Shown here: positions 4,635 through 61,725 of the stretch, piece after piece
Layout: every line of letters begins with the position of its first letter
Numbering within the stretch: the first letter of the stretch is position 1
Assembly: GCA_045534575.1 (NCBI GenBank)
Contig: JAZSJZ010000006.1
Location: 14,374-78,373 of the forward strand
DNA: 64,000 bases
DNA from: Christensenellaceae bacterium
GTDB lineage: Bacteria; Bacillota; Clostridia; Christensenellales; Borkfalkiaceae
Direction: 5' to 3'
The notes under the pieces: generated by a model
Databases searched by the model: none
Told to the model about the DNA's origin: nothing
The model's input: the letters and a program-made list of their open reading frames with translations, nothing else
Position numbers and translations under genes: made by a program

Positions 4635-4681
4635 TTGCAAAATTGTCGATAACGGGCTTATAGGTTAACTTTTTGCATATA
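4635..4681 (+). repeat. intergenic repeat copy a (core CGATAACGGGCTTATAGG at 4647-4664)
   Basis: 47-nt unit TTGCAAAA..CGATAACGGGCTTATAGG..CTTTTTGCATATA; 44/47 identical to 6781-6827; outer arms GCAAAA/TTTTGC. Confidence 0.85.
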
Positions 4682-4708
4682 TAAACGGATTGAAAATAAA
4701 AAATTTTA

Positions 4709-4733
4709 AGGGCTGACCAATTTGGTCAGCCCT
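4709..4733 (-). terminator. intrinsic terminator downstream of the ECF S-component gene
   Basis: AGGGCTGACC-AATTT-GGTCAGCCCT 10-bp perfect stem 13 nt after the stop; U-rich tract on the minus strand. Confidence 0.55.
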
Positions 4734-4745
4734 AATTTCTATTTA

Positions 4746-5273
4746 TTATCGTTTTAAAATTATTTTATTGTATAGTTTATAAATTCCAAAGCCCCAGCAT
4801 AGAACCATACCCAAAACCGCGCCTACAACAGCTTGCAAGATTTGATACGGCATTTTTAAAATTGCGTATTCGGGCGTGCTGTAAATAAAGGCTCTGCCTA
4901 AAGAATAGCCCACAACCATAATAATTGCGCCAATAAAAACTCCAATGCCTGAAGATATTTTTGGGTGTTTTTTCATAACGTAGTGAGAAAATACCGAAAT
5001 TACAACCGCTTGCAGTCCGTGAACGGCTAGTGAAACGAACATTGGTGTTGGGTAAAAGAACAAATCCCCTAAAAACGCTCCCACACCACCTACCATAAAC
5101 GCTGAAATAGGGTCTAGCATAATAGAGGCGAGGCATATTACGATATCGTTCATATAAAGATGACCTCCGGGAACTGGAACGCCGAACGAACTCATTGCAA
5201 TGTTGAGCGCCATAAACATTGCCGTAACGCAAAGAACGACGGTTGTTCTTTGCTTATTGTTTTTTGTTTGCAT
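4746..5273 (-). CDS. ECF-transporter substrate-specific (S) component, substrate unknown
   Basis: 175 aa, 5-6 TM helices, typical small S-component look. Its position divergent from a MocR/PdxR-like regulator hints at a vitamin B6-related substrate (inference). Confidence 0.55.
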   Translation of the reverse strand: MQTKNNKQRTTVVLCVTAMFMALNIAMSSFGVPVPGGHLYMNDIVICLASIMLDPISAFMVGGVGAFLGDLFFYPTPMFVSLAVHGLQAVVISVFSHYVMKKHPKISSGIGVFIGAIIMVVGYSLGRAFIYSTPEYAILKMPYQILQAVVGAVLGMVLCWGFGIYKLYNKIILKR

Positions 5274-5365
5274 TTTGAAATTCTCCTTGCAATTTTATTA
5301 AAAATATTATACAATATTTCTGGCTATATTAAAATAACCAAAAAAGGAGAATATTATATTACCAG

Positions 5366-6457
5366 ATGAAATACTTGCTTGATAAAACTATGCGCCCAGC
5401 GTATTTGCAAATTTATAAACTTATTCGAGAAGATATAATAAATGAAATTTATCCGTATAATAGCAAATTGCCGTCAAAGAGGCTTCTTAGCGAAGAACTT
5501 GGCGTTAGCACCATAACGGTCGAACATGCTTATGCGTTGCTTATAGACGAAGGATATATTGAGGCTAGAGAGCGAAGCGGTTTTTTCGTTATTTTTAAAA
5601 AGTGTGATGGTTTTGCCGTTTCAAATGAGGAGCTAACACATCACAAAATTGCATTGCAATCAAGTAACAGCCATCCAGATTTTCCTTTTTCATTGCTAGC
5701 AAAAACAATGCGAAAAGTTTTATTAGATTACGCCCAAGATATCCTTCAAAAATCTCCAAATCTAGGGTGCGATGAACTAAGGTGCGCCATTAAACAATAT
5801 CTTATTCGCAACCGAGGCATGAACGTAGATATCAATCAAATCGTTATAGGCTCTGGCGCGGAATATCTTTACGGGCTTATTATCGCTATGCTTGGAAGAG
5901 ATCAAATATATGCTATTGAATCGCCGTCCTATATGAAAATTGAACAAGTTTATAGCGCTGAAGGCGTGGAATATGAATTGCTTCCTTTAAAGCGCGACGG
6001 AATAGAAAGTATGGCGCTATCTCTAACAAAAGCAACCGTTCTTCACACAACGCCTTATAGAAGTTTTCCAACGGGCATAACGGCTTCGGCAAATAAACGG
6101 CACGAATACGTGCGCTGGGCAAAAGAAAATGGGCGAATTATTATTGAGGATGATTTCGAATCGGAGTTTTCAGTTTCGTCAAAGCCACAAGATACGCTTT
6201 TTTCTCTTTCATCGGATGATAACGTAATTTACCTTAACACGTTTTCGAAAACTATTTCTCCAGCGCTCCGCGTTGGCTATATGGTTCTTCCAAAGCGTTT
6301 AGTTGATAAGTTTGAGGAAAAACTTGGGTTTTACTCTTGCACCGTTCCAACGTTCGAACAATACGTTTTATATGAACTAATTAGTAGCGGCGATTTTGAA
6401 AGGCATATAAATCGCGTTAGAAGGCATAAGCGAAAAGAACTTGTTGTAAAAAATTAA
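5366..6457 (+). CDS. MocR-subfamily GntR regulator (wHTH plus aminotransferase-fold domain), apparently C-terminally short
   Basis: N-terminal GntR wHTH (KLPSKRLLSEELGVSTITVEHAY), fold-type-I domain with PLP lysine context NTFSKTISPALRVGY. Ends at HINRVRRHKRKEL, where family members normally continue for about 80-100 aa. Confidence 0.75.
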   Translation: MKYLLDKTMRPAYLQIYKLIREDIINEIYPYNSKLPSKRLLSEELGVSTITVEHAYALLIDEGYIEARERSGFFVIFKKCDGFAVSNEELTHHKIALQSSNSHPDFPFSLLAKTMRKVLLDYAQDILQKSPNLGCDELRCAIKQYLIRNRGMNVDINQIVIGSGAEYLYGLIIAMLGRDQIYAIESPSYMKIEQVYSAEGVEYELLPLKRDGIESMALSLTKATVLHTTPYRSFPTGITASANKRHEYVRWAKENGRIIIEDDFESEFSVSSKPQDTLFSLSSDDNVIYLNTFSKTISPALRVGYMVLPKRLVDKFEEKLGFYSCTVPTFEQYVLYELISSGDFERHINRVRRHKRKELVVKN

Positions 6458-6463
6458 AAATGC

Positions 6464-6481
6464 TGATAACGGGCTTATAGG
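6464..6481 (+). repeat. intergenic repeat copy b (TGATAACGGGCTTATAGG)
   Basis: Starts 7 nt after the MocR stop; its 3' G-run (ATAGGGGG) sits at RBS distance from the barstar ATG. Confidence 0.8.
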
Positions 6482-6492
6482 GGGACTATTAT

Positions 6493-6780: not shown

Positions 6781-6827
6781 TTGCAAAATCTTCGATAACG
6801 GGCTTATAGGCTAACTTTTTGCATATA
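6781..6827 (+). repeat. intergenic repeat copy c (core CGATAACGGGCTTATAGG at 6793-6810)
   Basis: 47-nt unit, 3 mismatches to copy a; begins 7 nt after the barstar stop. Confidence 0.85.
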
Positions 6828-10957: not shown

Positions 10958-11045
10958 TAGTAAACGTAAGCTAAAAAAATTTTTTTGTTAAATATTGTGG
11001 CGTTTTTTACCCTCAATATATTATAAAAACTAAAGCAAAAATCGT

Positions 11046-11063
11046 CGATAATCGACCTATAGC
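11046..11063 (+). repeat. intergenic repeat copy d (CGATAATCGACCTATAGC)
   Basis: Subtype 2 core, preceded by GCAAAAATCGT and overlapping the following terminator stem. Confidence 0.75.
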
Positions 11064-11093
11064 CCCGCTTTTTTGCTAAAAGCGGGGCTTTTT
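11061..11093 (+). terminator. intrinsic terminator of the T-box operon
   Basis: AGCCCCGCTTTT/AAAAGCGGGGCT stem followed by TTTTT. Confidence 0.75.
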
Positions 11094-25640: not shown

Positions 25641-25701
25641 TTAAAAATGGTGGGGTGTGTTATTTGCGCCTCATCTTTTTTAAAGAAGTGCGCAAAAAGT
25701 G

Positions 25702-25719
25702 CGTTAATCGAGTTATTGG
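25702..25719 (+). repeat. probable degenerate intergenic repeat copy (CGTTAATCGAGTTATTGG)
   Basis: 15/18 match to subtype-2 core CGATAATCGACTTATAGG, preceded by GCGCAAAAAGTG as in copy d; downstream of the rfbB stop. Confidence 0.45.
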
Positions 25720-25766
25720 CGTGCTATTTTCAAAATAATAGTTATTTAATTAGTTTTTAAAAAGCC

Positions 25767-26347: not shown

Positions 26348-26401
26348 GAACAAGTTTATTTTCTTGAAGTGCCTCTTTTAATAAGTCAAAGTAAAAAAGG
26401 C

Positions 26402-26419
26402 TGATAATGGGCTTATAGG
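26402..26419 (+). repeat. intergenic repeat copy e (TGATAATGGGCTTATAGG plus CTTACTTTTT tail)
   Basis: The tail runs up to the stop codon of the minus-strand DUF2726 gene. Confidence 0.8.
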
Positions 26420-26427
26420 CTTACTTT

Positions 26428-27024
26428 TTATAAATATTTTTTAATGGTTTTATAAATTTTTTCGCTATCAATTCCGTCTTTTACCCAAAAAGTTACAAGC
26501 GGAATTTTTGCCTTTTTGCAAATTTCTTGCACCTTTAAATCTCGCTCTTGTCTATCTTTCCTAAAATGCGTGTTATCGTTAATTTCAATTAAAACGAGCG
26601 GGCGATAGTTAAAATCAAAAATGCCAAAATCAACGTTTCTAAAAAGTTCGTTCCTAAAGCCCTCGCCCTGCTTATCGATAATAGAAGCAAGGTTGACTTG
26701 CGGTAAAATGATATAATCATTGCCAAAATATGCTTGCAAAACAAAAAGATATTCTCGCTCGCTAGCCGTAATTAAGCTATCTTTTAGCGAATACGAAGCG
26801 ACCTTCTTCTTATCTTTTAACTTGACAAAGATTATTATAATCGCCGTGATAATTATGCAAAAAGCGATAGCAATTATTTGTGGCGTTGTTAAAGTTAATA
26901 AGTTATTCATAATTGAATTATAACATTTTAGATTAGCAAAAAGCAATAAATTCATTAAAAATAACCAAAAACGAGCAAAAATTCTTAAAAAATATTTTTT
27001 AGTTATGTGCCAAAAATAGCGCAT
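26428..27024 (-). CDS. membrane-anchored DUF2726-like (PD-(D/E)xK nuclease-fold) protein
   Basis: TM helix (IIAIAFCIIITAIIIIFV), then SEREYLFVL...LPQVNL...VDFGIFD...LVLIEINDNTH...RDLKV...IPLVTF, the DUF2726 pattern. The true start may be the internal MNNLLTL. Confidence 0.6.
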   Translation of the reverse strand: MRYFWHITKKYFLRIFARFWLFLMNLLLFANLKCYNSIMNNLLTLTTPQIIAIAFCIIITAIIIIFVKLKDKKKVASYSLKDSLITASEREYLFVLQAYFGNDYIILPQVNLASIIDKQGEGFRNELFRNVDFGIFDFNYRPLVLIEINDNTHFRKDRQERDLKVQEICKKAKIPLVTFWVKDGIDSEKIYKTIKKYL

Positions 27025-27039
27025 ATGTTTAAAAACGGG

Positions 27040-27057
27040 GCTATAAGCCCATATTTT
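27040..27057 (-). repeat. degenerate intergenic repeat copy f (GCTATAAGCCCATATTTT)
   Basis: Retains CTATAAGCCCA (reverse complement of TGGGCTTATAG); inverted relative to copy e on the other side of the DUF2726 gene. Confidence 0.5.
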
Positions 27058-36107: not shown

Positions 36108-36153
36108 AAACTAAAAAGTGGCTCAATGGGGGGCTTTTTTAGAGAAAAACAAC

Positions 36154-43653: not shown

Positions 43654-45120
43654 ATGATTCAAGCGGAATATGATAATTTTACGTTATGCTCAAAAAAATG
43701 CACACAAAAAAAGAACGAACTAGAGTGTTCGCTCAATCTATCTCAAGACTATTTTGATAAAATTTTGTCAGTTTCGGCTAAAATTGTTGAAACTACGGCA
43801 AACGTTGAGGCTGGTTTAATTATTTATGGCGGAACGGTTGTTTTTAACGCAATTTTCCAAAACGAAGAACTAGAGCGAAACGAGGTTGGCGCAAGATTTT
43901 CCTTCTCGATGCCAATCGATGGTGGAGCAACAAATGCTAGCGCAAAATATCAAATAGATAACGTTAAAATCAAAAAAGAAGGCGGAATGCTTTTTGCCGT
44001 TCTAGATTTAACCTCTATTATTTGCTACGTTGAAAAGGAAGACAAAAAATATTTAACAAGTTCAAATTGCCTTGTTAATCGTGCTAAAAACTTTAGCCTT
44101 TGCGATATTGAATTTGGAAAAGTTTTCGACCTTGACGACGAGTTTGATGTTAAACGCATAAAAAAGGTGCTTTGGCAGGATGCTAGAGCGAGCGTAACTT
44201 CACTAGAAGTGAAAGAAAATGCCGTTATTTGCGATGGCGAGGTAACCTTGTGCGTTTGTTTGTTGCCTTTTTTAGAAAATAGTGATATATTAAAAGAAGA
44301 AAGAATTATTCCTTTCCGTTTTGAAGTGGATGCTGATGGGGCTGAGAGTTTTATGCTCGCAAGGTCTTCAGCAAGCGTTGAGAAGTTGCAACTTAAAGTT
44401 GTTGTTGATGAAGAAAATAACAAATCAACCATAACCGCCGAGATTGCCGTGAAAATTTTTGGCTTCGTTCAAGGCGAAATTGAAGAAGATTTTATCGTTG
44501 ACGTTTTTAGCCCAACCGTAGAACTGAAGCCAAGTTTTGTTGAAAGGTCGATTGATAAACTCATTTCACAAACGAGTTTTATTCACAAAATTTCAGGTAA
44601 AGCCATTTGCGACGTGCCAGAATATTCACGCTTTATCAAACTTATTTGCGAAAGCATTGAGTATTCCACGTCTTTAGAAAACGACGAAATTTTGCTCGTT
44701 GGCGTTATGAATGCAGACGCGCTTTTCTCTTCAGGAGAGGGCGAACTTATCTGCAAAAAAGCCTCGCTTCCGTTCACGATAAATCTTCCAACTGAGGGCG
44801 ACGAAAAGGAAGTTGAAGCCGTTTTGCAAAGCGTTTCGGCAAAACTTAGAAGCGGTGCAATAGAGGTCGATTTAGCACTTAGAATTTGTGAGGTAAAAAC
44901 CAAGAAGTTGGTCTATATGCTCGTTAACGACGTTATTGAGGGTGAAGAAACGCCAGAAAACGATAGCGCAATTAGCGTTTATATTGCTCAAAAGGGCGAT
45001 GACGAATGGACTTGTATGAAACGGTTGCAAGCGTCAATTGAAGAAATTTATAAGTTCAATAAAGATATTGAATTTCCGCTTAAAGGCGATGAGAGAATAA
45101 TCGTGTTTAGGCAAAAATAA
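43654..45120 (+). CDS. DUF3794-like repeat protein with C-terminal LysM-like motif (SipL/SpoVID-analogue candidate)
   Basis: 488 aa. C-terminus SVYIAQKGDDEWTCMKRLQASIEEIYKFN...GDERIIVF fits the LysM pattern; lies between veg and ispE among sporulation genes. Family assignment is from memory only. Confidence 0.4.
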   Translation: MIQAEYDNFTLCSKKCTQKKNELECSLNLSQDYFDKILSVSAKIVETTANVEAGLIIYGGTVVFNAIFQNEELERNEVGARFSFSMPIDGGATNASAKYQIDNVKIKKEGGMLFAVLDLTSIICYVEKEDKKYLTSSNCLVNRAKNFSLCDIEFGKVFDLDDEFDVKRIKKVLWQDARASVTSLEVKENAVICDGEVTLCVCLLPFLENSDILKEERIIPFRFEVDADGAESFMLARSSASVEKLQLKVVVDEENNKSTITAEIAVKIFGFVQGEIEEDFIVDVFSPTVELKPSFVERSIDKLISQTSFIHKISGKAICDVPEYSRFIKLICESIEYSTSLENDEILLVGVMNADALFSSGEGELICKKASLPFTINLPTEGDEKEVEAVLQSVSAKLRSGAIEVDLALRICEVKTKKLVYMLVNDVIEGEETPENDSAISVYIAQKGDDEWTCMKRLQASIEEIYKFNKDIEFPLKGDERIIVFRQK

Positions 45121-46161: not shown

Positions 46162-46689
46162 ATGAAACGCCTATGCATAAGTTTTGCCGTTATTCTCATA
46201 ATAATTTTAGCATTTAGCCAAATTCCAACAAAACAAGAAAACTCTCAGTATTTGCGAATTCATATTCGTGCTAATTCTAACGCTAGCGTTGACCAACAAA
46301 TAAAACTTGAAATTAGAGATTTGGTTGTCAACTTTCTTGCAAAAGATATTGCTTGCATCCACTCTAAAGAAGATGCAATGAAACTTATTGAGAGTAAGAA
46401 AAGTGCCGTTAACGGGCTTATAGACGGGTTTTTGCAACAAAAAGGTTTTAATTATAGCGCAAACGTTAAGATTTGCAAGGAAGAATTTCCGTCGCGGCAA
46501 TATGAAGACGTTACTTTGAGCGCAGGCTATTATGACGCCGTAATTATTGAGCTTGGAAAGGCTGAGGGCGATAATTGGTGGTGCGTTGTTTTTCCACCGC
46601 TTTGCTGGACAGATACGTCCGTTAAATATAAATCAAAAATCTTAGAAATTATAGACGATTTTTTTAACATTAACAATAAGGAGGAATAA
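46162..46689 (+). CDS. spoIIR: stage II sporulation protein R
   Basis: YLRIHIRANSNASVDQQIKLEIRD and NWWCVVFPPLC hallmarks. Confidence 0.85.
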   Translation: MKRLCISFAVILIIILAFSQIPTKQENSQYLRIHIRANSNASVDQQIKLEIRDLVVNFLAKDIACIHSKEDAMKLIESKKSAVNGLIDGFLQQKGFNYSANVKICKEEFPSRQYEDVTLSAGYYDAVIIELGKAEGDNWWCVVFPPLCWTDTSVKYKSKILEIIDDFFNINNKEE

Positions 46690-47420: not shown

Positions 47421-49274
47421 ATGGAAAACAAAAAGAATAATGCAACTGAAAAGGTTGAAAATATAACGAACGAAACTTCCAACGAAAAAAGCGAGCAAAA
47501 AGCGCAAAATTCAAAAACGGCGCAAAAAAACGCCGAGAAAAAGGCTGAAAATCAAAGAACTAAAAATGCCGTTCAAAAAAAGAACGACAAGAAGGCTAAA
47601 AAATCAGCAAAGACCGAAAAACAGTCGGCTCGTGAAAAGAAGAAAGAGTTAAGAAAAGAACTTAATAAGAAAAAACGCGAAGAGTGGAAAAGAGAGCGTT
47701 TGAGAAGAAAAGAAGAACGCCTTGCTCGCCGTGATATGTTGAAAAAAGAAAGTAAAAAAGATAGAGAAAAACGCCTTCAAGCCGAGAAACAAGCAAAACT
47801 TAAGGAAAGGCTTGCAAAACGAGAAGAAAAAATTAAAAGACTTGAAGAAAAAAATGCGCTCCGTCGCCAAAAACTTGCCGATAGAAGGATGCTCCGTGAA
47901 CAAAAAATGCGAGAAAAAAACGAGCAAAAAAGAGAGCGTTCAAGAAAGGGTCTTGGCGGTTGGATAACAGCAGTTTCCATCCTTGGCGCAACGACTTTAG
48001 CCTTAGCCACACTTTTCACGCTATCGCTAACAACGCCACTTGGCTCTAGCGATGACGTTAGTATGGTTGGCGGGGTGGACGAGGCTTTCTACGAATTTGT
48101 TGATATGGTTAACGATATGGACGTGAACCTATCAAAACTCGTTGTTTCAACCGATGAAAAATCGCAACAAAAAATCTTAAGCGACCTTGTTGTTTCGTCA
48201 ACTTTAGCGGAGGTTGCAGTGTCTAGATTACCGCTAAAAGACGAGAGTAGATATTACACTATGAAATACGTTAACCAAGTTGGCGATTTCTCAAAATACC
48301 TCAATAACAAGCTTATAGACGGGGATAACCTTAATAAGGACGACAAAGAAAACCTATCTAGCCTTTATAAAATTACCAACACTTTAAAGAACGAAATAAA
48401 TCTTGCGGTTGATAGCATGGGTGAAGATTTCAACTTTGCAACTATGCTTGATGAAAATAGCGATAACGTTGTTTTAAAGGCGTTTAACAACCTAGAATCT
48501 AACGCGATTGACTACCCAACTTTAATCTATGACGGTCCTTTTAGCGACGGGCTTCAAACTAAAGAAGTTAAGAATTTAAAGGGCGAGGAAATTAATCTCG
48601 TTGAGGCTAGAGCCATTTTCGAAAAGGCTTTTCAAGACTATAACGTGAAGGAAATTGAAGAACTTGGCGAATTAAACTCTAGAATTAACACCTATAATTT
48701 TGAAGCAAAGTCAAACGATACAATTCTTTTTGCCGAAATTTCTAAAAAGGGCGGAAAGGTTATCAGTTTTAACACCTTTGCCGACTGCTATAATAAGAAT
48801 TATTCTTTAGAAGATTGCATTGAAATCGGTTACGATATGATCGAAAGTTTAGGCGTTAGTGGTATGACTGCCGTTTGGGCTACCGAAAGCGGTGCTACGG
48901 CTTATATTAACTACGCTTACGAAACTAAAGACGCTATCTGCTACCCTGATATGATTAAGGTCGCAGTATGTATGGAAAGGGGCGTTGTTTCTAACTTTGA
49001 CGCTAGAGAATACTATTTCAACCATCAAGAAAGAAAAATTGAAGCGCCAACCTTAACAAAAGAGCAAGCCGTTGCAAAAATCAATAAAGATATTCAAGTT
49101 GATACGGTAAGGCTTGCAATCGTTCCAAAGGGCACTGAAAAGGAAGTTTTAACTTATGAAATTGCTGGCGTTTATGAAGATAATCAATATTTCGTTTACG
49201 TTGACGCAAAAACAGGCAGAGAAGTTAACATCTTTAAAGTGGTAGAAAACACCGAAGGAAAACTCATAGTTTAA
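47421..49274 (+). CDS. ypeB: germination protein YpeB with a long K/E/R-rich N-terminal extension
   Basis: TM at about aa 180, YpeB body and C-terminal PepSY-like repeats (VLTYEIAGVYEDNQYFVYVDAKTGREVNI); directly follows sleB. Confidence 0.75.
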   Translation: MENKKNNATEKVENITNETSNEKSEQKAQNSKTAQKNAEKKAENQRTKNAVQKKNDKKAKKSAKTEKQSAREKKKELRKELNKKKREEWKRERLRRKEERLARRDMLKKESKKDREKRLQAEKQAKLKERLAKREEKIKRLEEKNALRRQKLADRRMLREQKMREKNEQKRERSRKGLGGWITAVSILGATTLALATLFTLSLTTPLGSSDDVSMVGGVDEAFYEFVDMVNDMDVNLSKLVVSTDEKSQQKILSDLVVSSTLAEVAVSRLPLKDESRYYTMKYVNQVGDFSKYLNNKLIDGDNLNKDDKENLSSLYKITNTLKNEINLAVDSMGEDFNFATMLDENSDNVVLKAFNNLESNAIDYPTLIYDGPFSDGLQTKEVKNLKGEEINLVEARAIFEKAFQDYNVKEIEELGELNSRINTYNFEAKSNDTILFAEISKKGGKVISFNTFADCYNKNYSLEDCIEIGYDMIESLGVSGMTAVWATESGATAYINYAYETKDAICYPDMIKVAVCMERGVVSNFDAREYYFNHQERKIEAPTLTKEQAVAKINKDIQVDTVRLAIVPKGTEKEVLTYEIAGVYEDNQYFVYVDAKTGREVNIFKVVENTEGKLIV

Positions 49275-49292
49275 AACTTTTAAAAAACAAAA

Positions 49293-49324
49293 CTCCCCGA
49301 TAATCGACTTATAGGGGAGTTTTT
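49293..49324. terminator. bidirectional terminator between ypeB and the convergent lipoprotein gene, built around repeat copy i
   Basis: CTCCCC-GATAATCGACTTATA-GGGGAG plus TTTTT; A-run on the other side. Confidence 0.75.
49298..49315 (+). repeat. intergenic repeat copy i (CGATAATCGACTTATAGG)
   Basis: Subtype-2 core forming the apical part of the 49293-49319 hairpin. Confidence 0.85.
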
Positions 49325-50781: not shown

Positions 50782-50868
50782 CTTTATATATCCCCTTAAA
50801 GGCGTTTGTTCTCGCAGTTTTTGTTTTTACTAGTCTTTGCCAAAATTCGCTAGTTTTAAATTACCTTG

Positions 50869-50886
50869 CCTATAACACCGTTATCG
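50869..50886 (-). repeat. intergenic repeat copy j (reverse complement CGATAACGGTGTTATAGG)
   Basis: 16/18 to subtype-1 core; ATAAC-GGT-GTTAT inner hairpin. Confidence 0.75.
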
Positions 50887-50905
50887 CGTGGTTTTTGTTG
50901 TTTTA

Positions 50906-51526: not shown

Positions 51527-51554
51527 AACAAAAGAAAAAATTTAAAAAGTCGGG

Positions 51555-52538
51555 CTATAGCATCGTTTTCCGTAGTTCTTCGCTAGATAAAGGCGAAATC
51601 TCACTTGGCGCAATATCTAAAACGGTTTTGCAACCAACCTCGCCGTTTTTGCTCTTTTTGAAAACTGCGCGAGCATAAGCAACTAAAACGCTTGCCGTAA
51701 ACTCAGGGTTAGAATCAAGCTTTAACTTATATTCGATAACGTGGTTGTTCTCAAGGGCATTTCCAGTGTTGCCAGAGCGAATAACAACGCCACCGTGAGG
51801 AATTCCCTTGTGGTTTTTATCAAGTTCTTCTTGAGAGATGAAGTTTACCGTTGTGTCGTAATCGGCGAAATATTTAGGCATTGTTTTAATTTTTTGTTCA
51901 ATAGCCTTTTTATCTGCGTTATCTTCCGCCACAACGAAGCAAAGCCTAGTGTGTTTTTCACGAGTGGTAAATTCTTTTTGCTCGCCGGCTCTAACCGATT
52001 CTAAAGCAGACTCAACGGGGCAAGTGTATTGACGGGCGTCAATAACGCCTTCAATTCTTCTTATCGCATCGCTATGCCCTTGACTAACGCCTTTGCCCCA
52101 GAAAGTATAGTCCTTTCCGCAAGGCAGAATTGCCTGAGCGTAAACACGGTTTAAAGAGAACATACCGGGGTCCCATCCGCAAGAAATGAGCGCAACCTTT
52201 TTGCCAAGTTTAGCCATTTCGTCAACTGAAGAGAAGTGGGTAGGAATGTCGGCATGCGTGTCAAAACTATCAACAACGTTAAAATGCTCGGCTAGAGTTT
52301 TGGTCATTGTAGGAAGGTCTGTTGCGCTTCCGCCACAAATAATCAAAACGTCAATATCGTTTTTAAAATTTAAAATATCGCTAGCAGAATAAACCTTTGC
52401 GCCCTCAGTTTGAAGAGATAAGGAACTTGGGTTTCGTCTTGTGAAAACGCCAAAAAGCTTCATATCGGGGTTTTGGGCGATAGATAGTTCAACGCCCTTG
52501 CCTAAATTGCCATAGCCGTAAATTGCAACGCTAATCAT
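51555..52538 (-). CDS. ddh: meso-diaminopimelate D-dehydrogenase
   Basis: ISVAIYGYGNLGKGVE Rossmann start, CGWDPGMFS, WGKGVSQGHSDA motifs typical of Ddh. Confidence 0.88.
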   Translation of the reverse strand: MISVAIYGYGNLGKGVELSIAQNPDMKLFGVFTRRNPSSLSLQTEGAKVYSASDILNFKNDIDVLIICGGSATDLPTMTKTLAEHFNVVDSFDTHADIPTHFSSVDEMAKLGKKVALISCGWDPGMFSLNRVYAQAILPCGKDYTFWGKGVSQGHSDAIRRIEGVIDARQYTCPVESALESVRAGEQKEFTTREKHTRLCFVVAEDNADKKAIEQKIKTMPKYFADYDTTVNFISQEELDKNHKGIPHGGVVIRSGNTGNALENNHVIEYKLKLDSNPEFTASVLVAYARAVFKKSKNGEVGCKTVLDIAPSEISPLSSEELRKTML

Positions 52539-53723: not shown

Positions 53724-53725
53724 AC

Positions 53726-56165: not shown

Positions 56166-56271
56166 AAAATTCTCCTAAACCTTATGCAGATAATACTATT
56201 TTATCATAAAAATTAAATTTGTCAATACTAGTTTAAACTTTTCCGCATTTTAAATTTATGCTAAAAGTGGG

Positions 56272-56289
56272 GCTATAAGTCGATAAATA
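56272..56289 (-). repeat. intergenic repeat copy l (reverse complement TATTTATCGACTTATAGC)
   Basis: The 3' 13 nt ATCGACTTATAGC match subtype 2; AAAAGTGGGG tail. Confidence 0.6.
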
Positions 56290-56320
56290 GCAAATTTTCA
56301 CAAAATAATCATAACTTAAA

Positions 56321-56354: not shown

Positions 56355-59000
56355 CTAAACCTTTCTAATTGCTTCAATAGGCGACTTTTTGCTCACCTTT
56401 ATGATAGGAATCAAAGAAGCAAGCGTCATAGAAACAAATAAAAGAACTGCAACTAAGCCAATGATAGGGAAAGTAAAATAAAGGAACTGAACACCTGTTA
56501 AAACGCCTTTCGCAAAAACTTTGTTGAGTAGTGGCAATGCAATTACATAAGAGGCAATATAAAACACCGAAGTTATAAGATAGAATATAACGCCAAGCGC
56601 ATAATAAATTTTAAAAATGCTCCAGCTAGTGCCACCGATTGCACGTATTATACCTATGTTTTTCTTGCTGTCGGAGACCACCGAAGAAATATAATTTATA
56701 AACATAAGCATGGAAATAACCAGGAATGCCGAGCCAAAAACTAAAAAGAGAGTTCTCAGAGCAATTAAGGTTAATTCGGTAAAAATGATATCTTGTGTAT
56801 AATCGCTATCTGCAAAAATAGTATATTCACTAAAAAATTTCGCATATTCAAGCGACTCTTCACGAGTTTCTGCCTTTTTCATAAGTATTTTAGAAACTGG
56901 TGTATTGCTTTCGTTCGCAAGTTCTGAGAAGAACTCATCTGAAATGTAAGTAATGCCCATCATCTGCATTTCAGGACTTTCTTTAAACAAAACCCCTTTA
57001 ACGACAACTTCTTTTTCAATTTTTTTACCTATGCTTTCATAATTTAAACAAAGTGTTATTGTTTCTCCAACTCGCGGTGGAACTACGTTTTTAGGGGGAT
57101 AAGTATAATATCCACCAGGGTATGTGTCAACCCATTCAGTATAGTAATAATCTTCGTTATTTAGTTTTTCTCCAAAAAATTTTTCATAATCGCTCTTGCT
57201 TAAATAAATCTCGTTATCTTCAAGTGAAATATCTTCTGTTTCAGATAAATATTGAAACCCGTCGGCAGTATATAACAACTCGTAATAACCAACAAAATTA
57301 TGAACAGGGCGTACATCGATTGAAAAGTTTTTTCCATTCACAAAAAATCCATCATTTTCTAAAAAAAGTATACCTTCACCACCAATCACACCATTTTCCG
57401 CAAATTTTAAGCTTCCATGAGCAGACGCTATTTTATTAACCCACTCATCATTTACAAATAGAGAACAATAAAGTTTTTTCATTGCAAGCTCTTCAATAGT
57501 AAACATATCATCTGTTGAGTATTGAACGTTGCCGTTAGGAGATTTATCCACCAATGCTTGCAATTCTTCATACTTTTCTATAAAACCAAATTTTTCATAG
57601 TCGGTTTTTAATATGCCAGCAACCTTTAGTGTAGCACTGCTACCCGGATAAATTTCCATAACAAAGATTTTACCTATTAAATCTTCGATCTTCGCATCGC
57701 TATTGAGTGCAACATTTGCATCCCCGTCTATATATTTACTATTTGCCCGTATAAGCCCAATAGCATAATAATCTGTAATGTATGCGCTTTGGATATCTAA
57801 CGGCAAATATTCGCCTATCATAGCATATCCTAAAATGTTTTTAATATCCTCCGCGCTATTAATTTCAATATAGCTGTTTCCGTGCCAAAATATACCCGTA
57901 GGGGAATATCGGTCCGTTGTAATTGTATAATACGGCGTCCCAAACTTAATGTTACGTTGATATAAAAAATCAGTATATGGTGAATACTTGTTTTCAATAT
58001 TATATTGATTTATGTAAGATACATTTTTTCTATCCGCTTCCACATTGATATTACCATTACCATTATAATCTATTCCTTGTATAAATTGATAATATGGCAC
58101 ATTGTCGTCAAACAATTTATCAGATAAACTTCTATCTGAATCAACCTTCAAAACAGAGCCGAGAATGCAAAACATTGCGCACGCTAAAAAAGACAAAATT
58201 AATGAAATGGTAAACCTAATTTTTCGCTTAAAAATGTTTTTTATTGCAAATTTACCAACGTATTTTGGCGGAAATTTAGGTTTAATCGACTTATAGACAG
58301 ACTTTTCTTCATTATCGCTTGCAATTTCAGTTTTGTTCTGAACGCTTTCGATAACACCGTCTTTCATGGTGATAATTTTATCTGCATAGCGATTAGCAAA
58401 ATCTAAATCGTGGCTAACAACGACCACAGCAATCTCTTTTGAGAGCTCTTTTAAAATTTGAAAAACGTTTTCTGCGTTGCCACTATCAAGGTTTCCCGTT
58501 GGCTCGTCGGCAAGAAGAAGTTTTGCTCCCTTTGCAAGTTGGCGCGCTATTGCAACACGTTGGCGTTCACCGCCAGAAAGTTCGTAAGGCAATCTTTCAC
58601 CATAACCTGACAACCCAACCTTTGTTAAACTTTCTTCAATCATTTCGGGCGTTGCGGTAATTCCTGCAATGTTTAACTGAAGTTCTATGTTTTGAAAAAC
58701 GGTTAATTCTTCTAAAAGATTAAACTCTTGAAAGATAATTCCAACGTAAGAAGCACGATAGGAATCATATTCGCTTTGCGAAAAACTTTTCATTGAAACG
58801 CCGTCAACTAAAACGTCGCCAATGCTAATTTTATCTAGCCCGCCTAAAAGGTTTAAAAACGTTGATTTACCGCAACCAGACTTACCAACGATAAAGCACA
58901 TACCTTTAGTTTCAAACGTGCAAGAAACACCTTTAAGAGCAAGAACTTTATTCTTGCTCTTAGTGTTGTAAACGTGTCTTAAATCTCTAACCTCAATCAT
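56355..59000 (-). CDS. fused ABC transporter ATPase + FtsX/MacB-type permease with large extracytoplasmic domain
   Basis: Walker A GKSGCGKST, LSGGERQRVAIAR, LLLADEPTGNLD; TM at about aa 255; about 480-aa loop; C-terminal FtsX-like 3-TM bundle. Confidence 0.85.
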   Translation of the reverse strand: MIEVRDLRHVYNTKSKNKVLALKGVSCTFETKGMCFIVGKSGCGKSTFLNLLGGLDKISIGDVLVDGVSMKSFSQSEYDSYRASYVGIIFQEFNLLEELTVFQNIELQLNIAGITATPEMIEESLTKVGLSGYGERLPYELSGGERQRVAIARQLAKGAKLLLADEPTGNLDSGNAENVFQILKELSKEIAVVVVSHDLDFANRYADKIITMKDGVIESVQNKTEIASDNEEKSVYKSIKPKFPPKYVGKFAIKNIFKRKIRFTISLILSFLACAMFCILGSVLKVDSDRSLSDKLFDDNVPYYQFIQGIDYNGNGNINVEADRKNVSYINQYNIENKYSPYTDFLYQRNIKFGTPYYTITTDRYSPTGIFWHGNSYIEINSAEDIKNILGYAMIGEYLPLDIQSAYITDYYAIGLIRANSKYIDGDANVALNSDAKIEDLIGKIFVMEIYPGSSATLKVAGILKTDYEKFGFIEKYEELQALVDKSPNGNVQYSTDDMFTIEELAMKKLYCSLFVNDEWVNKIASAHGSLKFAENGVIGGEGILFLENDGFFVNGKNFSIDVRPVHNFVGYYELLYTADGFQYLSETEDISLEDNEIYLSKSDYEKFFGEKLNNEDYYYTEWVDTYPGGYYTYPPKNVVPPRVGETITLCLNYESIGKKIEKEVVVKGVLFKESPEMQMMGITYISDEFFSELANESNTPVSKILMKKAETREESLEYAKFFSEYTIFADSDYTQDIIFTELTLIALRTLFLVFGSAFLVISMLMFINYISSVVSDSKKNIGIIRAIGGTSWSIFKIYYALGVIFYLITSVFYIASYVIALPLLNKVFAKGVLTGVQFLYFTFPIIGLVAVLLFVSMTLASLIPIIKVSKKSPIEAIRKV

Positions 59001-59038
59001 AACAAATTATCCTTTCATTTTTGTTTTGAAAAATTCGT

Positions 59039-59560
59039 TTAAATAGATGGAACTAAAACTATGAGCAAAAGCGTATCTGGGAAATAGAAGAAATATACCC
59101 TTTGCGTTATAAGCCAATAATATGAGTTTTCAAAATTAGGAATATATTCTTTTGGAATTTCTCCTGCTCCAAGTGTTGAAGCTTTCCACTCATCATCGAA
59201 AAAATCTTCTTCCATTTCAGTGTTTTTTTGGTTTGAAAATGAGTTTTCGTTTAACCATTCTATCGGTTCGGTTTTAAATTCATATACCGTAAATTGTCTA
59301 TGCCGACCATTAGCAAACGAATTGTCAAAAAAATGATATAAAACGTCTGTGTCGGTTGGAATTTCAACGGCTGTTAGTTCTTGTATCCTATCTCTTTGTT
59401 GCCAAGCGTCTTTAGAGCAAGCGCTCAAGGAAAAAATGCTAACAGCAATTAAAATGCTACACAAAAATAATTTAACTGCGTTTTTCGAACAAACTTTTAA
59501 CGTTTTTTTGCGTAATTTTTTCACTTTCGCACCTTTTTTATTTGCCGTGCAATACGTCAA
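59039..59560 (-). CDS. hypothetical lipoprotein co-transcribed with the ABC fusion
   Basis: Lipobox SLSAC after a basic N-terminus; 38-bp gap to the ABC start; no family recognised. Confidence 0.45.
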   Translation of the reverse strand: MTYCTANKKGAKVKKLRKKTLKVCSKNAVKLFLCSILIAVSIFSLSACSKDAWQQRDRIQELTAVEIPTDTDVLYHFFDNSFANGRHRQFTVYEFKTEPIEWLNENSFSNQKNTEMEEDFFDDEWKASTLGAGEIPKEYIPNFENSYYWLITQRVYFFYFPDTLLLIVLVPSI

Positions 59561-59748
59561 AACTTAATCCTTTTTTCTTGCTTTTAATTATAGCATATAG
59601 GGGGCGGGTTGTAAATATAATCTAAAAAATTTTTGCGTTTCAAAATTGATAAAAAACTAATAAAACAACGTTTAAATAAAAATTGCAAAAACGTTTGTTT
59701 TGTGTTATATTATTTATAGCAGTTTAAACTGCTTAAATAAGGTGGGTT

Positions 59749-61632
59749 ATGAAAAAATTTGTTTTAGTGTTTGTTTTAATTTTAGTTTTTGCGCTTTCAG
59801 CGTGCAATAATATGGCGCAAAACTTTGAAAATAGTTCTAGTTCTCAAGGCTTTTCGTCTTTTCAAAACGAAAACCAAGGCGGGCAAAATTCGCAAGGCAA
59901 TTCTTCTAGCGGAGGGGCAAATTCTTCTAACGAAGAACAAAACTCGGCTTCAAACGAAGGGGCGAATACTTCTAGTTCCATAAACACTTCTTCTTCAAAT
60001 TCTAGTTCGCAAGGTCAATCTTCTTCGTATTCTTCGAGCATTTCCGTTTCAACGAATATTCCTTCAAGCGTAGAGTCGGTTTTAAACACGGCAATAAGCG
60101 AAACGGTTTTAATGCCAACGGGAATAGTTGAACACGACTATATTATTTTCCCAAGAGTTTCAAAAACCAACCTTGTTTATATGACCTTTGAATCGCACGA
60201 TACGTCGATTATCGATAACGAGGGAAGAGTTTATCAAGGTTCGAGCCAAAAGCAAGTTACCGTTAGCGGTTATTTTTCCTTTGATGGCTACACTAAGAAA
60301 AAAGATTACACTTTAACCGTTGCGCCTAAGAAGGAAGAGTCGGTAAAAATAACCAAGAACGATGCTAGAATTAAAAAAATTGTTGAAGTTAATAGCGTTT
60401 CAGCCTTAAAAACGGCGGTATCTTCTTTAAGCGCGGGCGATTGCATTTTGTTAAAGAGCGGAACTTACTCTGGGTTTAATTCAAAAATTGAGGCAAGCGG
60501 AACAGAGCAAAACCCAATCTTTATTCTTAGCGAGGTGGACGGCGGAGCGGTGTTCACTGGCTCAACCTATTTTGATTGCCGTGGCAATAACGTTATAATT
60601 TCCGGCTTAAAGTTCGCGAACGGCTCGCCAGCAAATTCGCGTGGCGCGGTAAGTTTTTTAGGCGATGATTGTAGGCTTACGAACTGCCTTTTTGATAGTT
60701 TTTATGAATCTAGCGTTGACGAAAAGTGGGTATCGCTTTCGGGAAAGCGGGCTGAGGTTGACCACAACGAGTTTGTTGGAAAGTCAGCGCCGGGCGCGCT
60801 TTTAACCATTTGGCGTGAAGACGATTCTAGTCAATTTCATCATATTCACCACAATTTGTTTAAAGATTTTCCAGCGGGAGATGCAAACGGCTTTGAAACG
60901 ATAAGGGTTGGCGATTCTACTATGAGCCAAAGTGATGCTTATTGTTTAATCGAAAACAACGTTTTCTCTTCATGCAACGGCGAAATTGAGATAATTTCTG
61001 TTAAAAGCGGAAGAAATATGGTTAGAAACAACACGTTTATCGAGTGCCAAGGTCATTTAACGTTTAGGCACGGCAAGAATAACTACGCTTATTCTAACGC
61101 GTTCTTGTGCAACGAGGTTTCAAATTCTGGCGGTATTCGCGCATACGACGGCGGGCACGTTATTAAGAACAACTACGTTTACGGGCAAAGGTCAACTTCA
61201 AACACAAGGGCTGGGTTTATTCTTCACTCGGGCGAAAACGAGGTGGGCGATATACCGAAAATAAACGCCGGTTGGACGGCTTATAACTGCCTTGTTGAAA
61301 ACAACACAGCGGTTAACTGCCAGCAAAGTTTTATGTTCTGCAAAAAATATACTTACGCAACCAAAGATATCGTTTTAAAAAATAACGTTGCTTCAAACTC
61401 TTCTTGCGCCGGCTTTAGAGTGAACATTGAGCCTAGAAATTTGCAATCTAGCGGTAATTTGGTTTACGCAAGCTCTGTTTATACTTCTAACACAACGTTT
61501 TCTAACCTTTCGGGCTTAGAGGTTAAAGCATATTTCTTGCCAACCATCTCTCAATTTGGTTGCTACGAATATTCAGGCTGTGGCTCAAGTGGCGTTAAGG
61601 TTTTGACCGAACAAAACGTAGGAAATTATTAA
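59749..61632 (+). CDS. lipoprotein polysaccharide lyase, PL6-like (chondroitinase B / alginate lyase fold)
   Basis: Lipobox ALSAC, S/N/Q-rich linker, then CRLTNC, KWVSLSG..AEVDHNEF, NGFETIRVGDS, CNGEIEIISVKSGRNMVRNNTF, GHLTFRHG, GGIR motifs as in PL6 enzymes. Confidence 0.75.
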   Translation: MKKFVLVFVLILVFALSACNNMAQNFENSSSSQGFSSFQNENQGGQNSQGNSSSGGANSSNEEQNSASNEGANTSSSINTSSSNSSSQGQSSSYSSSISVSTNIPSSVESVLNTAISETVLMPTGIVEHDYIIFPRVSKTNLVYMTFESHDTSIIDNEGRVYQGSSQKQVTVSGYFSFDGYTKKKDYTLTVAPKKEESVKITKNDARIKKIVEVNSVSALKTAVSSLSAGDCILLKSGTYSGFNSKIEASGTEQNPIFILSEVDGGAVFTGSTYFDCRGNNVIISGLKFANGSPANSRGAVSFLGDDCRLTNCLFDSFYESSVDEKWVSLSGKRAEVDHNEFVGKSAPGALLTIWREDDSSQFHHIHHNLFKDFPAGDANGFETIRVGDSTMSQSDAYCLIENNVFSSCNGEIEIISVKSGRNMVRNNTFIECQGHLTFRHGKNNYAYSNAFLCNEVSNSGGIRAYDGGHVIKNNYVYGQRSTSNTRAGFILHSGENEVGDIPKINAGWTAYNCLVENNTAVNCQQSFMFCKKYTYATKDIVLKNNVASNSSCAGFRVNIEPRNLQSSGNLVYASSVYTSNTTFSNLSGLEVKAYFLPTISQFGCYEYSGCGSSGVKVLTEQNVGNY

Positions 61633-61693
61633 ACTTCAAAGCCTTAAATCATAATTTTTAACTGTAGAAAAATTTAAAGCAAAAATAAAAAAA

Positions 61694-61725
61694 CTGTCCT
61701 ATAACCTCGTTATCGGGCAGTTTTT
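61694..61725 (+). terminator. intrinsic terminator of the PL6 gene, built around repeat copy m
   Basis: CTGTCCTATAAC-CTC-GTTATCGGGCAG (12-bp stem, one mismatch, one G-U) plus TTTTT. Confidence 0.75.
61698..61715 (-). repeat. intergenic repeat copy m (reverse complement CGATAACGAGGTTATAGG)
   Basis: 16/18 to subtype-1 core; ATAAC-GAG-GTTAT inner stem. Confidence 0.75.

Follow-up and report, generated by a model that had tools for sequence, protein, structure and literature searches.

Uncultured gut Clostridia of one entire clade carry a 36-base motif, mostly close behind genes but also within them, and each of its copies is central to about 300 bases of helically phased A-tracts. The motif is kept in place and in orientation between species while its flanks diverge, its copies within genes arose by substitution and not by insertion, and it has no orientation bias relative to transcription. 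The phasing around the copies points to a chromosome-folding or supercoil-organizing site of a kind not described before, and not to a mobile repeat. We propose, with moderate confidence and from sequence evidence, that each copy is an architectural site at the DNA level, that is, a putative protein-bound bending site with phased arms, located at the ends of transcription units.

A dispersed motif family

The original prediction described a dispersed repeat family present in both orientations in the 64-kb window (the whole stretch of DNA that was analysed). All 14 of the positions it listed were recovered, in the orientations it gave, and the total is larger; scored with a 38-nt PWM trained on copies from relatives, the window has 19 copies that reach 10 bits or more, where a third-order Markov null predicts 0.12. 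The degenerate 18-mer has 4 exact matches there (0.0 expected) and 10 matches with at most two mismatches (0.10 expected). The 19 copies are as follows.

4638..4673, plus strand: motif copy, 42.4 bits, CGGG subtype; between an ECF-S transporter gene (4746-5273, minus strand) and a DtxR-type repressor gene (4150-4515, minus strand), antisense to both, and downstream of a hairpin at 4709-4733
6455..6490, plus strand: motif copy, 41.0 bits; takes up the entire 35-nt gap between the GntR/aminotransferase stop codon (6455-6457) and the barstar ATG (6493)
6784..6819, plus strand: motif copy, 44.2 bits; begins 10 nt past the barstar stop, upstream of a promoter-like site (6903-6931) and a T-box leader
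11037..11072, plus strand: motif copy, 41.9 bits, TCGA subtype; tail overlaps a terminator hairpin (11061-11089); last before a 14.6-kb polysaccharide cluster
25693..25728, plus strand: weak motif copy, 16.7 bits; first beyond the polysaccharide cluster
26393..26428, plus strand: motif copy with the window's top score, 45.1 bits; convergent gap, abutting the stop codon of a DUF2726 gene (26428-27024, minus strand)
27031..27066, minus strand: weak motif copy, 15.7 bits; left half degenerate; sole window copy in a divergent gap
36081..36116, minus strand: motif copy, 25.3 bits; after a VWA gene (34488-36005); left half of an inverted pair, 67 bp apart
36145..36180, plus strand: motif copy, 22.4 bits; right half of the inverted pair
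44903..44938, minus strand: genic copy, 22.8 bits; antisense in a SipL-domain gene (43654-45120), in-frame reading KKLVYMLVNDVIE
46398..46433, plus strand: genic copy, 37.4 bits; sense in spoIIR (46162-46689), read as KSAVNGLIDGFL
48293..48328, plus strand: weak genic copy, 16.4 bits; sense in ypeB (47421-49274)
49289..49324, plus strand: motif copy, 36.2 bits; convergent gap, nested in a hairpin
50860..50895, minus strand: weak motif copy, 14.3 bits; sense orientation, in the tandem gap that separates two minus-strand genes
51545..51580, minus strand: weak copy, 13.1 bits; contains CTATAG, whose TAG serves a DAP dehydrogenase gene (51555-52538, minus strand) as its stop codon
53697..53732, minus strand: motif copy, 21.7 bits; convergent gap, after the terminator hairpin of a PALP-enzyme gene; tail contains the WYL gene stop codon (53702-53704)
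56263..56298, minus strand: motif copy, 29.7 bits; tandem gap between an ABC transporter gene and a flavin reductase gene, sense orientation
58271..58306, plus strand: genic copy, 21.7 bits; antisense in an ABC ATPase/permease gene (56355-59000, minus strand), read as EKSVYKSIKPKFP
61689..61724, minus strand: motif copy, 26.0 bits; convergent gap, nested in a hairpin

The full 36-base consensus is AAAAAnnGnCGATAA[C/T][G/C]G[G/A]CTTATAG[C/G]CnnACTTTT, and the two subtypes that had been predicted are both seen, with centers CGGG and TCGA. The core is a near-dyad of half-sites GnC[G/T]ATAA about 5 bp apart, with its axis at about position -2 (counted from the C of CTTATAG), and A and T runs that flank the half-sites round off the 36 bp. 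A longer unit with GCAAAA/TTTTGC outer arms had also been proposed; the A-run and ACTTTT arms are general among the copies, but the terminal G and C are not. Beyond the window, over 118 stretches have the motif; they come from dozens of MAG species, uncultured and Christensenellales-like, in which it occurs at a frequency of about 1 per 3.5 kb after removal of the copies used for locus finding.

Position relative to genes

The motif had been thought strictly intergenic, with no copy inside a coding sequence. This does not hold, since four window copies lie within Pfam-supported genes (spoIIR, ypeB, the SipL-domain gene and the ABC transporter gene) and a fifth, 51545-51580, covers the final codons and stop of the DAP dehydrogenase gene. 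The relatives' loci are 8-kb MAG pieces that were selected for an exact motif match, a selection that is corrected for in the density counts, and their gene calls are crude (longest ORFs, picked greedily); the window, unlike these loci, is an unbiased sample. The share of copies in ORFs is 36–43%, real genes among them, and 43% of unbiased copies are genic. Per kb there are 1.33 copies in convergent, 1.20 in tandem and 0.285 in divergent gaps, against 0.146 in genes; the excess in intergenic over coding DNA is about 8-fold, and convergent gaps are about 4.7 times denser than divergent ones. The motif also lies close to the 3' ends of genes, at a median of 33–44 nt from the upstream stop codon. 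Two particular placements noted earlier were confirmed, namely the copy at 6464 set tight against barstar (6455-6490 runs from the preceding stop to the barstar ATG) and the WYL stop codon supplied by the motif tail.

Such placement could be that of an operator for a global transcription factor, or of a protein roadblock that aids the end of transcription at gene ends. A dyad-symmetric core is typical for dimeric regulators, stop codons lie near the copies, and the copies are conserved in place. We nevertheless consider this very unlikely: the motif is rarest at promoter sites (the divergent gaps), one site per about 3.5 kb is far above usual regulon numbers, copies lie within genes in both orientations, and ordinary intrinsic terminators adjoin several copies, so that a roadblock is unneeded.

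Hairpins and orientation

The core had been reported to form the top of hairpins at 49293-49319 and 61694-61720, where the element would double as an intrinsic terminator. These two hairpins do fold significantly on both strands (z -3.4 to -5.8). The one at 49289-49324 reaches -19.7 and -20.1 kcal/mol on the two strands, with z about -5, and is plausibly a bidirectional terminator; the one at 61689-61724 has z values of -3.4 and -5.8. They are an exception and not the rule of the family (2 of the 19 window copies), and for typical copies folding is on a par with that of shuffles (z -0.2 to -0.9). The complementarity of the outer stems is likewise not general, since at least 4 of 5 pairs form in 9% of copies compared with 8.4% for randomly re-paired arms, and there is no covariation. 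The motif matches no Rfam family. Copies in tandem gaps number 69 sense and 84 antisense, and those within genes 82 sense and 62 antisense.

That the motif might be an RNA element of 3' UTRs, a terminator or a stabilizing hairpin, is suggested by the strong hairpins followed by U-runs at the two window copies and by the many copies that lie directly past stop codons. This reading is already largely refuted by the missing orientation bias and covariation; typical copies that fold like shuffles and the lack of an Rfam match also speak against it, as does phasing across 300 bp of duplex DNA, which has no meaning for an RNA, and we find it scarcely credible. Because orientation is random, stems do not covary and typical copies do not fold, we conclude that the motif acts at the level of DNA and not RNA.

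Conservation and origin of the copies

In syntenic blocks from species that are 65–82% identical (about 74%), 41 of 60 copies have a partner in the same orientation. Core identity is 0.91 for genic copies, compared with 0.71 in their flanks, and 0.75 for intergenic copies, compared with 0.36 in theirs; in mfd, synonymous sites are frozen inside the motif. The inverted pair 36081..36116/36145..36180 is found again in a second species (L048), its order and orientation unchanged. Genic copies align with motif-less orthologues without length change, the differences being substitutions and not insertions, and in spoIIR the domain follows its Pfam profile collinearly through copy 46398..46433, which is therefore not an insertion. 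Some intergenic cases of presence and absence resemble short indels, in alignments that are unreliable. A drive from biased uptake could be an alternative way of keeping copies intact in place.

The original prediction offered a REP- or MITE-like element among its options, which as a mobile repeat would depend for its spread on a transposase gene at another genomic location. The motif is indeed a short, scattered and partly palindromic sequence, with the enrichment past genes and in convergent gaps that REPs have, and the indel-like intergenic cases, unreliably aligned as they are, would fit. We think mobility highly improbable, however, given that stable stem-loops and stem covariation are both absent; that the consensus is without a GTAG or CGTC end tag (a criterion given in PMC3733652); that over a third of copies are in ORFs, including real genes, where they arise without indels; that position and orientation are conserved at orthologous sites across a divergence as deep as about 74% identity; and that the flanks, which would lie outside any 36-nt insert, are phased to the motif. 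As had been noted, no transposase or RAYT gene is in the window: none of the window ORFs tested has a transposase or Y1 (RAYT) domain.

Among known systems, the REP/BIME family (BIME-2 gyrase sites and the IHF-site-bearing BIME-1/RIP) is similar in being short, high-copy, partly dyad-symmetric and located downstream of genes and in convergent gaps, and at the DNA level in that such elements are thought to bind topology or architecture proteins (PMC6379681). REPs, in contrast, are GC-rich stable hairpins with the GTAG/CGTC tag that are strictly extragenic and RAYT-mobilized, whereas the present motif has neither hairpin nor tag, evolves by substitution in place also in genes, keeps its position, and has phased arms of about 150 bp. 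HIP1 of cyanobacteria and the Rickettsia palindromic elements are iterated palindromic motifs that, like this one, also occur inside protein-coding genes. HIP1 is only 8 bp long, and the Rickettsia elements are 100–150 bp insertions that add peptide segments, whereas genic copies of the motif bring no change in length.

Helically phased arms

Around the motif, and in register with it, A/T content rises and falls every 11.42 bp (bootstrap 11.35–11.50), and the phasing is coherent to about 140–175 bp from it, or about 150 bp per side. Its amplitude is 0.028, compared with 0.005±0.001 at other A5 tracts. It is kept around 56 copies that lie deep in ORFs of at least 400 aa (0.0277 versus 0.0073±0.0018), it was reproduced with the same peak phases in an independent metagenome set of 128 copies, and it is present around the window's own 19 copies (r = 0.40 versus 0.007±0.098). 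The phasing is mirror-symmetric about a center at -2 to -1.5 (r = 0.82), with AA as the source of the signal on the left and TT on the right. Copies of all classes, those in genes among them, are such mirror centers. The spacing is about 10.0 bp in the central 50 bp and 11.4–11.5 bp in the arms.

Phasing of A/T tracts at about 11 bp over at least 100 bp, in coding and intergenic DNA alike, is also a property of A-tract clusters, of the ~11-bp "structural code" of bacterial genomes and of plectoneme-pinning sequences, where it has been read as favoring plectonemic loops and apices (PMC4132750, PMC6301789). Those signals are diffuse and not anchored to a conserved sequence, whereas the phasing here is locked to a specific 36-bp core with a defined mirror axis, and other A5 tracts of the same genomes have almost none of it.

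A rival reading takes the motif for a strong site of DNA gyrase, comparable in function to BIME-2/REP of E. coli or to the Mu strong gyrase site; the core would be the G-segment, the arms would be wrapped right-handedly, and positive supercoils downstream of genes would be removed. The E. coli gyrase motif found by Topo-seq is symmetric, with a 36-bp central part and helically periodic flanks, and is enriched downstream of transcription units, and BIME-2 repeats are strong sites independent of transcription (PMC6379681). The core of our motif, likewise symmetric and about 36 bp long, favors gene ends and convergent gaps, and its CGGG subtype has GGGC at -3..0, a GxxC that resembles the four-base gyrase cut site (PMC12630141). 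The TCGA center, on the other hand, has no GxxC, the period differs from those of E. coli (10.75 bp) and S. pneumoniae (about 10 bp), and each side is phased over about 150 bp, compared with roughly 65 bp for gyrase. Gyrase recognition is moreover degenerate and by indirect readout, whereas the core here is highly sequence-specific and is conserved across species. We regard a gyrase site as unlikely.

A DNA uptake sequence like the USS of Haemophilus or the DUS of Neisseria, spread and maintained clade-wide by the preference of a competence receptor and by recombination, seems to us quite unlikely. Like those sequences the motif is very abundant, family-wide, in both orientations, tolerated in coding DNA and now and then nested in terminators; it enters genes through substitutions and is retained at orthologous places, and the low-GC 14.6-kb polysaccharide cluster, perhaps horizontally acquired, is without copies. 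Uptake does not predict the 4.7-fold avoidance of divergent gaps, however, and sequence-specific uptake is not known in Firmicutes. The Haemophilus USS itself has helically phased T-tracts, genic copies and terminator co-option, but its phasing consists of two tracts on one side (PMC3458573), unlike the mirror-symmetric arms described here, which extend to both sides and also in genes. An uptake receptor would not select long two-sided phasing, and the arms therefore count against this explanation. Depletion from genes is also stronger here, with 43% of unbiased copies genic compared with 65% for the USS (PMC3458573).

A proposed architectural site

For the architectural site that we favor, the core would be read sequence-specifically by a putative, probably dimeric, DNA-bending protein, the foremost candidate being a site-specific protein of the HU/IHF (DNABII) type. 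At 11.4 bp the period of the arms exceeds the helical repeat of 10.5 bp, and they would therefore favor right-handed writhe; core and arms together would set the place of a plectoneme tip under negative supercoiling or of a right-handed wrap on a protein oligomer. Curvature, handedness and pinning are here read from the periodicity of the bases. Periods above 10.5 bp have been associated with plectonemic loops, and phased AT-tracts with plectoneme apices (PMC4132750); plectonemes can be pinned by DNA sequence according to PMC6301789, and one study holds, to the contrary, that bending is not conferred by some ancient periodic motifs (PMC7537859). Since the sites cluster close behind genes and between convergent ones and avoid gaps that hold only promoters, we propose that, where transcription units end, they may organize or insulate the supercoiling that transcription generates; of all steps in the explanation, this function as an insulator of supercoils is the weakest. 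Another option of the original prediction, a protein-binding site selected at operon boundaries, is supported by the 8-fold intergenic density, the 4.7-fold excess in convergent over divergent gaps, the proximity to stop codons, and the kept place and orientation of the copies.

The motif and its copies

The original prediction of a dispersed repeat family was sound in its main point: a degenerate 18-mer for the core occurs in the window 4 times exactly and 10 times at no more than 2 mismatches, where 0.00 and 0.10 are expected. We built a 38-nt weight matrix from relatives, with position 0 set at the C of CTTATAG. Its matches of at least 10 bits number 19 in the window, compared with 0.12 in a third-order Markov null, and 14 of these reach at least 20 bits. 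All 14 positions first listed were recovered on the strands given for them, and the two subtypes were borne out, the four bases 5' of CTTATAG being mostly CGGG or TCGA. Five copies had been missed. Four of these lie inside Pfam-supported genes and the fifth holds the end of another; the claim that the repeat is strictly intergenic is therefore wrong.

Copies in the window that the original prediction missed
44903-44938: within the SipL-domain gene
46398-46433: within spoIIR (37 bits; translates as KSAVNGLIDGFL)
48293-48328: within ypeB
51545-51580: supplies the last codons and TAG stop of the diaminopimelate dehydrogenase gene
58271-58306: within the ABC transporter gene

A scan of species-representative genomes gave at least 118 stretches with the motif; among those listed, nearly all come from uncultured MAGs of gut or rumen that bear the label Christensenellaceae, Christensenella sp. 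or "Clostridia bacterium". Over 865 kb of these loci together with the window, 397 copies match the matrix, as against 1 in shuffles. When the copies that had brought the loci in were removed, an unbiased set of 240 copies in 830 kb remained, 1 copy per 3.5 kb, which is also the density in the window. A further 120 matches in viral contigs (L119-L238) were rejected as family members; they are mostly a chance match to the start region of one recurrent enterobacterial prophage gene (GCAGCGATAACCAGCTTATAGCTCAACTTCAT), one per contig, in DNA of ~50% GC.

The full consensus is AAAAAnnGnCGATAA[C/T][G/C]G[G/A]CTTATAG[C/G]CnnACTTTT, and that from 240 copies is AAAAAnnGnCGATAAYSGRCTTATAGSCnnACTTTT. It is a near-dyad in which half-sites GnC[G/T]ATAA flank about 5 bp, with some conserved asymmetries: a G in the left half stands opposite a T in the right half, and the right A/T run is displaced by 2 bp. 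No preferred spacing of neighbouring copies was found, and pairs 7-13 nt apart are the near-palindrome matching itself. Positions -4 and -1 co-vary as C..G or T..A (85% complementary versus 52% expected) and are too near each other for hairpin pairing. One apparently orthologous site, at the edge of a syntenic block (L009 4871 and L101, loci of two MAGs), seems to be CGGG in one species and TCGA in the other. Perhaps a symmetric protein contact allows two states, to which the two subtypes correspond.

Twelve of the motif-bearing MAG loci (L001, L006, L007, L019, L027, L030, L033, L052, L056, L058, L088 and L115) are labelled Acidiphilium, Parasutterella excrementihominis or Thermoplasmatales. 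Their contigs are 34-49% GC and carry Firmicute-type genes (e.g. mfd in L019), and they look like mislabelled bins. The motif, which already flags these MAGs, could therefore serve as a sharp taxonomic marker for an uncultured gut and rumen clade.

Placement relative to genes

In the unbiased set, and by gene calls that are crude in the loci, density per kb falls from 1.33 in convergent and 1.20 in tandem gaps to 0.285 in divergent gaps and 0.146 in genes; the comparison of intergenic with coding DNA on which the original prediction had been staked thus came out in its favour. Tandem-gap copies lie at a median of 33-44 nt from the upstream stop codon, which is nearer than the next start for 119 of 153, and several copies overlap the stop codon. 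ORFs nevertheless hold 36% of all copies in the loci and 43% of the unbiased ones, and Pfam-confirmed genes with copies include mfd, an addA-like gene, uvrB, a P-type ATPase gene and spoIIR. Copies are oriented at random with respect to transcription (69 sense and 84 antisense in tandem gaps, 82 and 62 in genes).

Readings of the motif as a promoter (sigma-70, sigma-D or extended -10) were rejected, since divergent gaps are where it is rarest and promoters of the ordinary TTGACA/TATAAT-like kind occur apart from it, as at 6903-6931. A replication-oriented signal of the KOPS or Chi kind was likewise set aside: over the 118 loci listed, orientation is unrelated to gene direction, and GC skew in the window follows gene strand. 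By eye, none of the cre, Fur box, DnaA box, Spo0A box and dif consensus sequences fits the motif.

Between two syntenic blocks, one MAG locus has ~2.8 kb (L011 2509-5302) where that of another species has ~0.25 kb (L012 2450-2704), and motif copies stand at both borders of the longer segment (2394 and 5267). This may be a sign that variable segments are bordered by copies.

Conservation of copies and the mobile-repeat reading

The carrier species are 65-82% identical in syntenic DNA, and of 60 copies that lie in syntenic blocks, 41 are matched by a copy with the same orientation at the orthologous position. Identity of core versus flank is 0.91 versus 0.71 in genes and 0.75 versus 0.36 between genes, the last being about random. 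In mfd, three copies are common to two species and synonymous positions are frozen over the motif; the inverted pair at 36.1 kb of the window is found again in another species.

The original prediction had likened the family to REP or MITE elements, and such a reading has high copy number and location at gene ends in its favour. One end of a REP carries a conserved tetranucleotide, GTAG or CGTC, according to an excerpt of PMC3733652. Neither tag is present in the 240-copy consensus, and the stable stem-loop and the restriction to extragenic DNA are also lacking. The copies expected of a MITE, derived by insertion and length-polymorphic, with terminal inverted repeats and target-site duplication, were not seen either: genic copies and motif-less orthologues can be aligned with no indels (intergenic cases of presence and absence align too poorly to judge), and across the copy in spoIIR the Pfam domain stays collinear with its profile. 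In these genic copies the motif arose by substitutions, with no change in length. The prediction had also stated that no transposase or RAYT gene is present in the window, and there it was right, as no transposase or Y1 (RAYT) domain was found among the window ORFs tested. With no stem covariation, no end tag, genic copies of unchanged length and orthologous placement, the REP/MITE reading fails, and from these alignments the motif is to all appearance not a mobile repeat.

RNA, hairpin and terminator tests

Complementary outer stems of differing sequence had been noted at two copies. In general they do not exist: none of four registers shows outer-stem covariation, and positions -15 to -11 form at least 4 of 5 pairs with +7 to +11 in 9% of copies, versus 8.4% for randomly re-paired arms. 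In typical window copies the fold is no more stable than in shuffled sequence (z of -0.2 to -0.9). The proposed role as an intrinsic terminator, that is a GC-rich hairpin followed by a T-run, stands for two copies, 49289-49324 and 61689-61724, which alone lie in significant hairpins (on both strands, z of -3.4 to -5.8), and both of these are between convergent genes; it falls for the family at large, stem pairing over 397 copies being that of the null. Canonical intrinsic terminators adjoin several copies as separate elements; sigma-70-like promoters, too, occur as separate elements. Among Rfam matches in the window, two T-boxes alone reach the gathering score; at E up to 1 nothing credible falls on any copy, and a match of 30.9 bits (cut-off 100 bits) overlaps the hairpin at 61.7 kb. 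A hairpin or terminator model was rejected for all but those two copies, and the motif is neither an RNA hairpin nor, in general, a terminator.

Phased A-tracts flank the motif

In the average over copies, A/T content on either side shows an oscillation phased to the motif, with a period of 11.42 bp (bootstrap 95% range 11.35-11.50; 11.45 for intergenic and 11.35 for genic copies) and with peaks visible to ~140-175 bp from the centre. The amplitude around 5504 A5 tracts outside the motif is 0.003, and size-matched subsamples of these give 0.0052±0.0011 versus 0.028 for the motif; the phasing is therefore no general property of A-runs. It persists deep inside genes, where 56 copies at least 200 nt within ORFs of at least 400 aa give an amplitude of 0.0277 versus 0.0073±0.0018. 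It was reproduced, with identical peak positions, in 128 copies on 66 independent metagenome contigs, and the window's 19 copies match a template made from the other loci (r = 0.40, null 0.007±0.098).

The phasing is mirror-symmetric about -2 to -1.5 (r = 0.82). Its carriers are AA in the left arm and TT in the right arm, TA and AT contributing little; these are therefore A-tracts with dyad polarity. The flanks show a preference for A/T over G/C and no specific bases, in unrelated genes, and thus the phasing is not residual homology of a longer repeat.

The spacing of A/T blocks is ~10.0 bp over the central 50 bp (-26 to +24), which include the core, and 11.4-11.5 bp in the arms, and the right-arm peaks, when extrapolated, miss the observed left-arm peaks by ~4.5 bp. 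This switch broadly fits a tight planar or oppositely wound central loop with writhed arms.

Comparison with known systems

The motif might be a strong DNA gyrase site, with which it has in common a symmetric centre of ~36 bp (core -19 to +16), periodic flanks and a bias to positions downstream of genes. The flanks of gyrase motifs, however, have a period of ~10-10.75 bp over ~47 bp per side (PMC6379681, PMC12630141). The 11.42-bp arm period lies outside both 10.75 and ~10 bp, and phasing out to ~140-175 bp on each side far exceeds the ~65 bp of gyrase. Sequence specificity differs as well. The GxxC of the 4-bp staggered gyrase cut can be placed as GGGC at -3 to 0 in the CGGG subtype only; the TCGA subtype has CGAC there.

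An uptake sequence (USS or DUS), of which genomes carry hundreds to thousands, would account for copy number (about 1 per 3.4-3.5 kb), balanced orientation, the mixture of intergenic copies with genic ones made by substitution, and nesting in terminators; the carriers found are all uncultured MAGs, seen as 8-kb pieces only. It predicts neither symmetric phasing over 150 bp nor avoidance of divergent gaps. Weaker still than the gyrase-site and uptake readings are the REP/MITE and RNA-element readings, and with them a global operator or roadblock.

The motif fails the defining tests for a REP, a MITE, a terminator and the gyrase motif. No description of its sequence or of such an element was found in the literature, and a search by sequence returned primers only. 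We file it nearest to dispersed architectural or topology-related DNA sites such as REP/BIME and the A-tract "structural code" clusters; that it represents a new class is a tentative view, toward which we lean less than away.

A possible apex site for supercoiled DNA

The core is sequence-specific, dyad-like and under selection at the DNA level, lies amid ~300 bp of helically phased A-tracts and prefers the ends of transcription units. Phased AT-tracts are found at the apices of plectonemes (PMC4132750; also an excerpt of PMC6301789). From established DNA mechanics we infer that A-tracts phased above the helical repeat would follow a right-handed superhelical path, the geometry of negatively supercoiled interwound arms. 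A rough calculation with the plectoneme geometry that Boles, White and Cozzarelli reported gives ~11.2-11.4 bp at superhelical densities of -0.06 to -0.08.

We suggest that a putative bending protein, likely a dimer, would bind the core and fix a tight loop, after which the arms would interwind, or else wrap in the right-handed sense on an oligomer. Supercoils would thereby be pinned at gene ends and neighbouring transcription units possibly insulated. Judged from sequence patterns, we consider it an even call whether a bending protein on the core and interwound or wrapped arms act in this way. A fuller version strikes us as possible and somewhat doubtful: an undescribed class of chromosome element, made up of an apex site and a clade-specific bending protein, with arms selected, even through codon choice in genes, to interwind as a negative plectoneme, so that hundreds of supercoil tips per genome would be topological insulators at the ends of transcription units.

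As a lead, a site-specific protein of the HU/IHF type would be a reasonable first candidate. A search of the loci with B. subtilis HBsu found one HU-like (DNABII) gene, 39% identical to it, at 498-764 of MAG locus L054, with a motif copy ~120 nt downstream. This gene is uninformative, since many genes have a copy behind them and HU is, to our knowledge, universal.

A decades-old argument takes the faint ~11-bp periodicity of bacterial genomes for a structural code for supercoiled DNA; the signal is normally diffuse and without an experimental handle. Here the phasing is concentrated at a discrete, conserved 36-bp sequence, which makes synthesis, mutation, pull-down and single-molecule supercoiling assays possible. 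If the plectoneme reading is true, plectonemes or topological boundaries of a bacterial chromosome would have a defined sequence element, and a candidate protein, to position them, selection on DNA shape would reach ~150 bp into coding sequences, and REP-like biology (high copy number, gene ends) would have arisen without transposition.

Other features of the window

The window is from the chromosome of a spore-forming member of the Clostridia, carrying T-boxes, nrdD, spo0A, spoIIR, sleB/ypeB and nusG-rplKAJL. Plus-strand copies of the motif prevail left of ~50 kb and minus-strand copies right of it. At 49300-50900 gene strand changes from mostly plus to mostly minus and cumulative GC skew flattens; this is poor evidence for a replication terminus, since local skew tracks gene strand and a search found no dif-like site.

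No copy occurs for 14.6 kb across a polysaccharide biosynthesis cluster (11421-25640; sugar transferase, GT2 and GT4 glycosyltransferases, Wzy, flippase, DegT aminotransferase and RmlA/RmlB-like genes), which is bracketed by the copies at 11037-11072 and 25693-25728. The cluster is 33-34% GC, versus ~38% elsewhere in the window; it could be DNA exchanged horizontally, or no more than a tight operon. The stretch with nusG-rplK-rplA-rplJ-rplL, spo0A and veg (36180-44900) is also free of copies, over 8.7 kb. RNA leaders, one of them sub-threshold, also lie in the window.

RNA leaders in the window
6941-7172 (+): T-box leader, upstream of an ACT-domain/acyl-CoA synthetase-like gene (7258-9522)
40275-40406: L10 leader, just 5' of rplJ; sub-threshold (43.3 bits, cut-off 44 bits) and probably real
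55257-55486 (-): T-box leader, upstream of a PLP-dependent enzyme gene (53762-55126)
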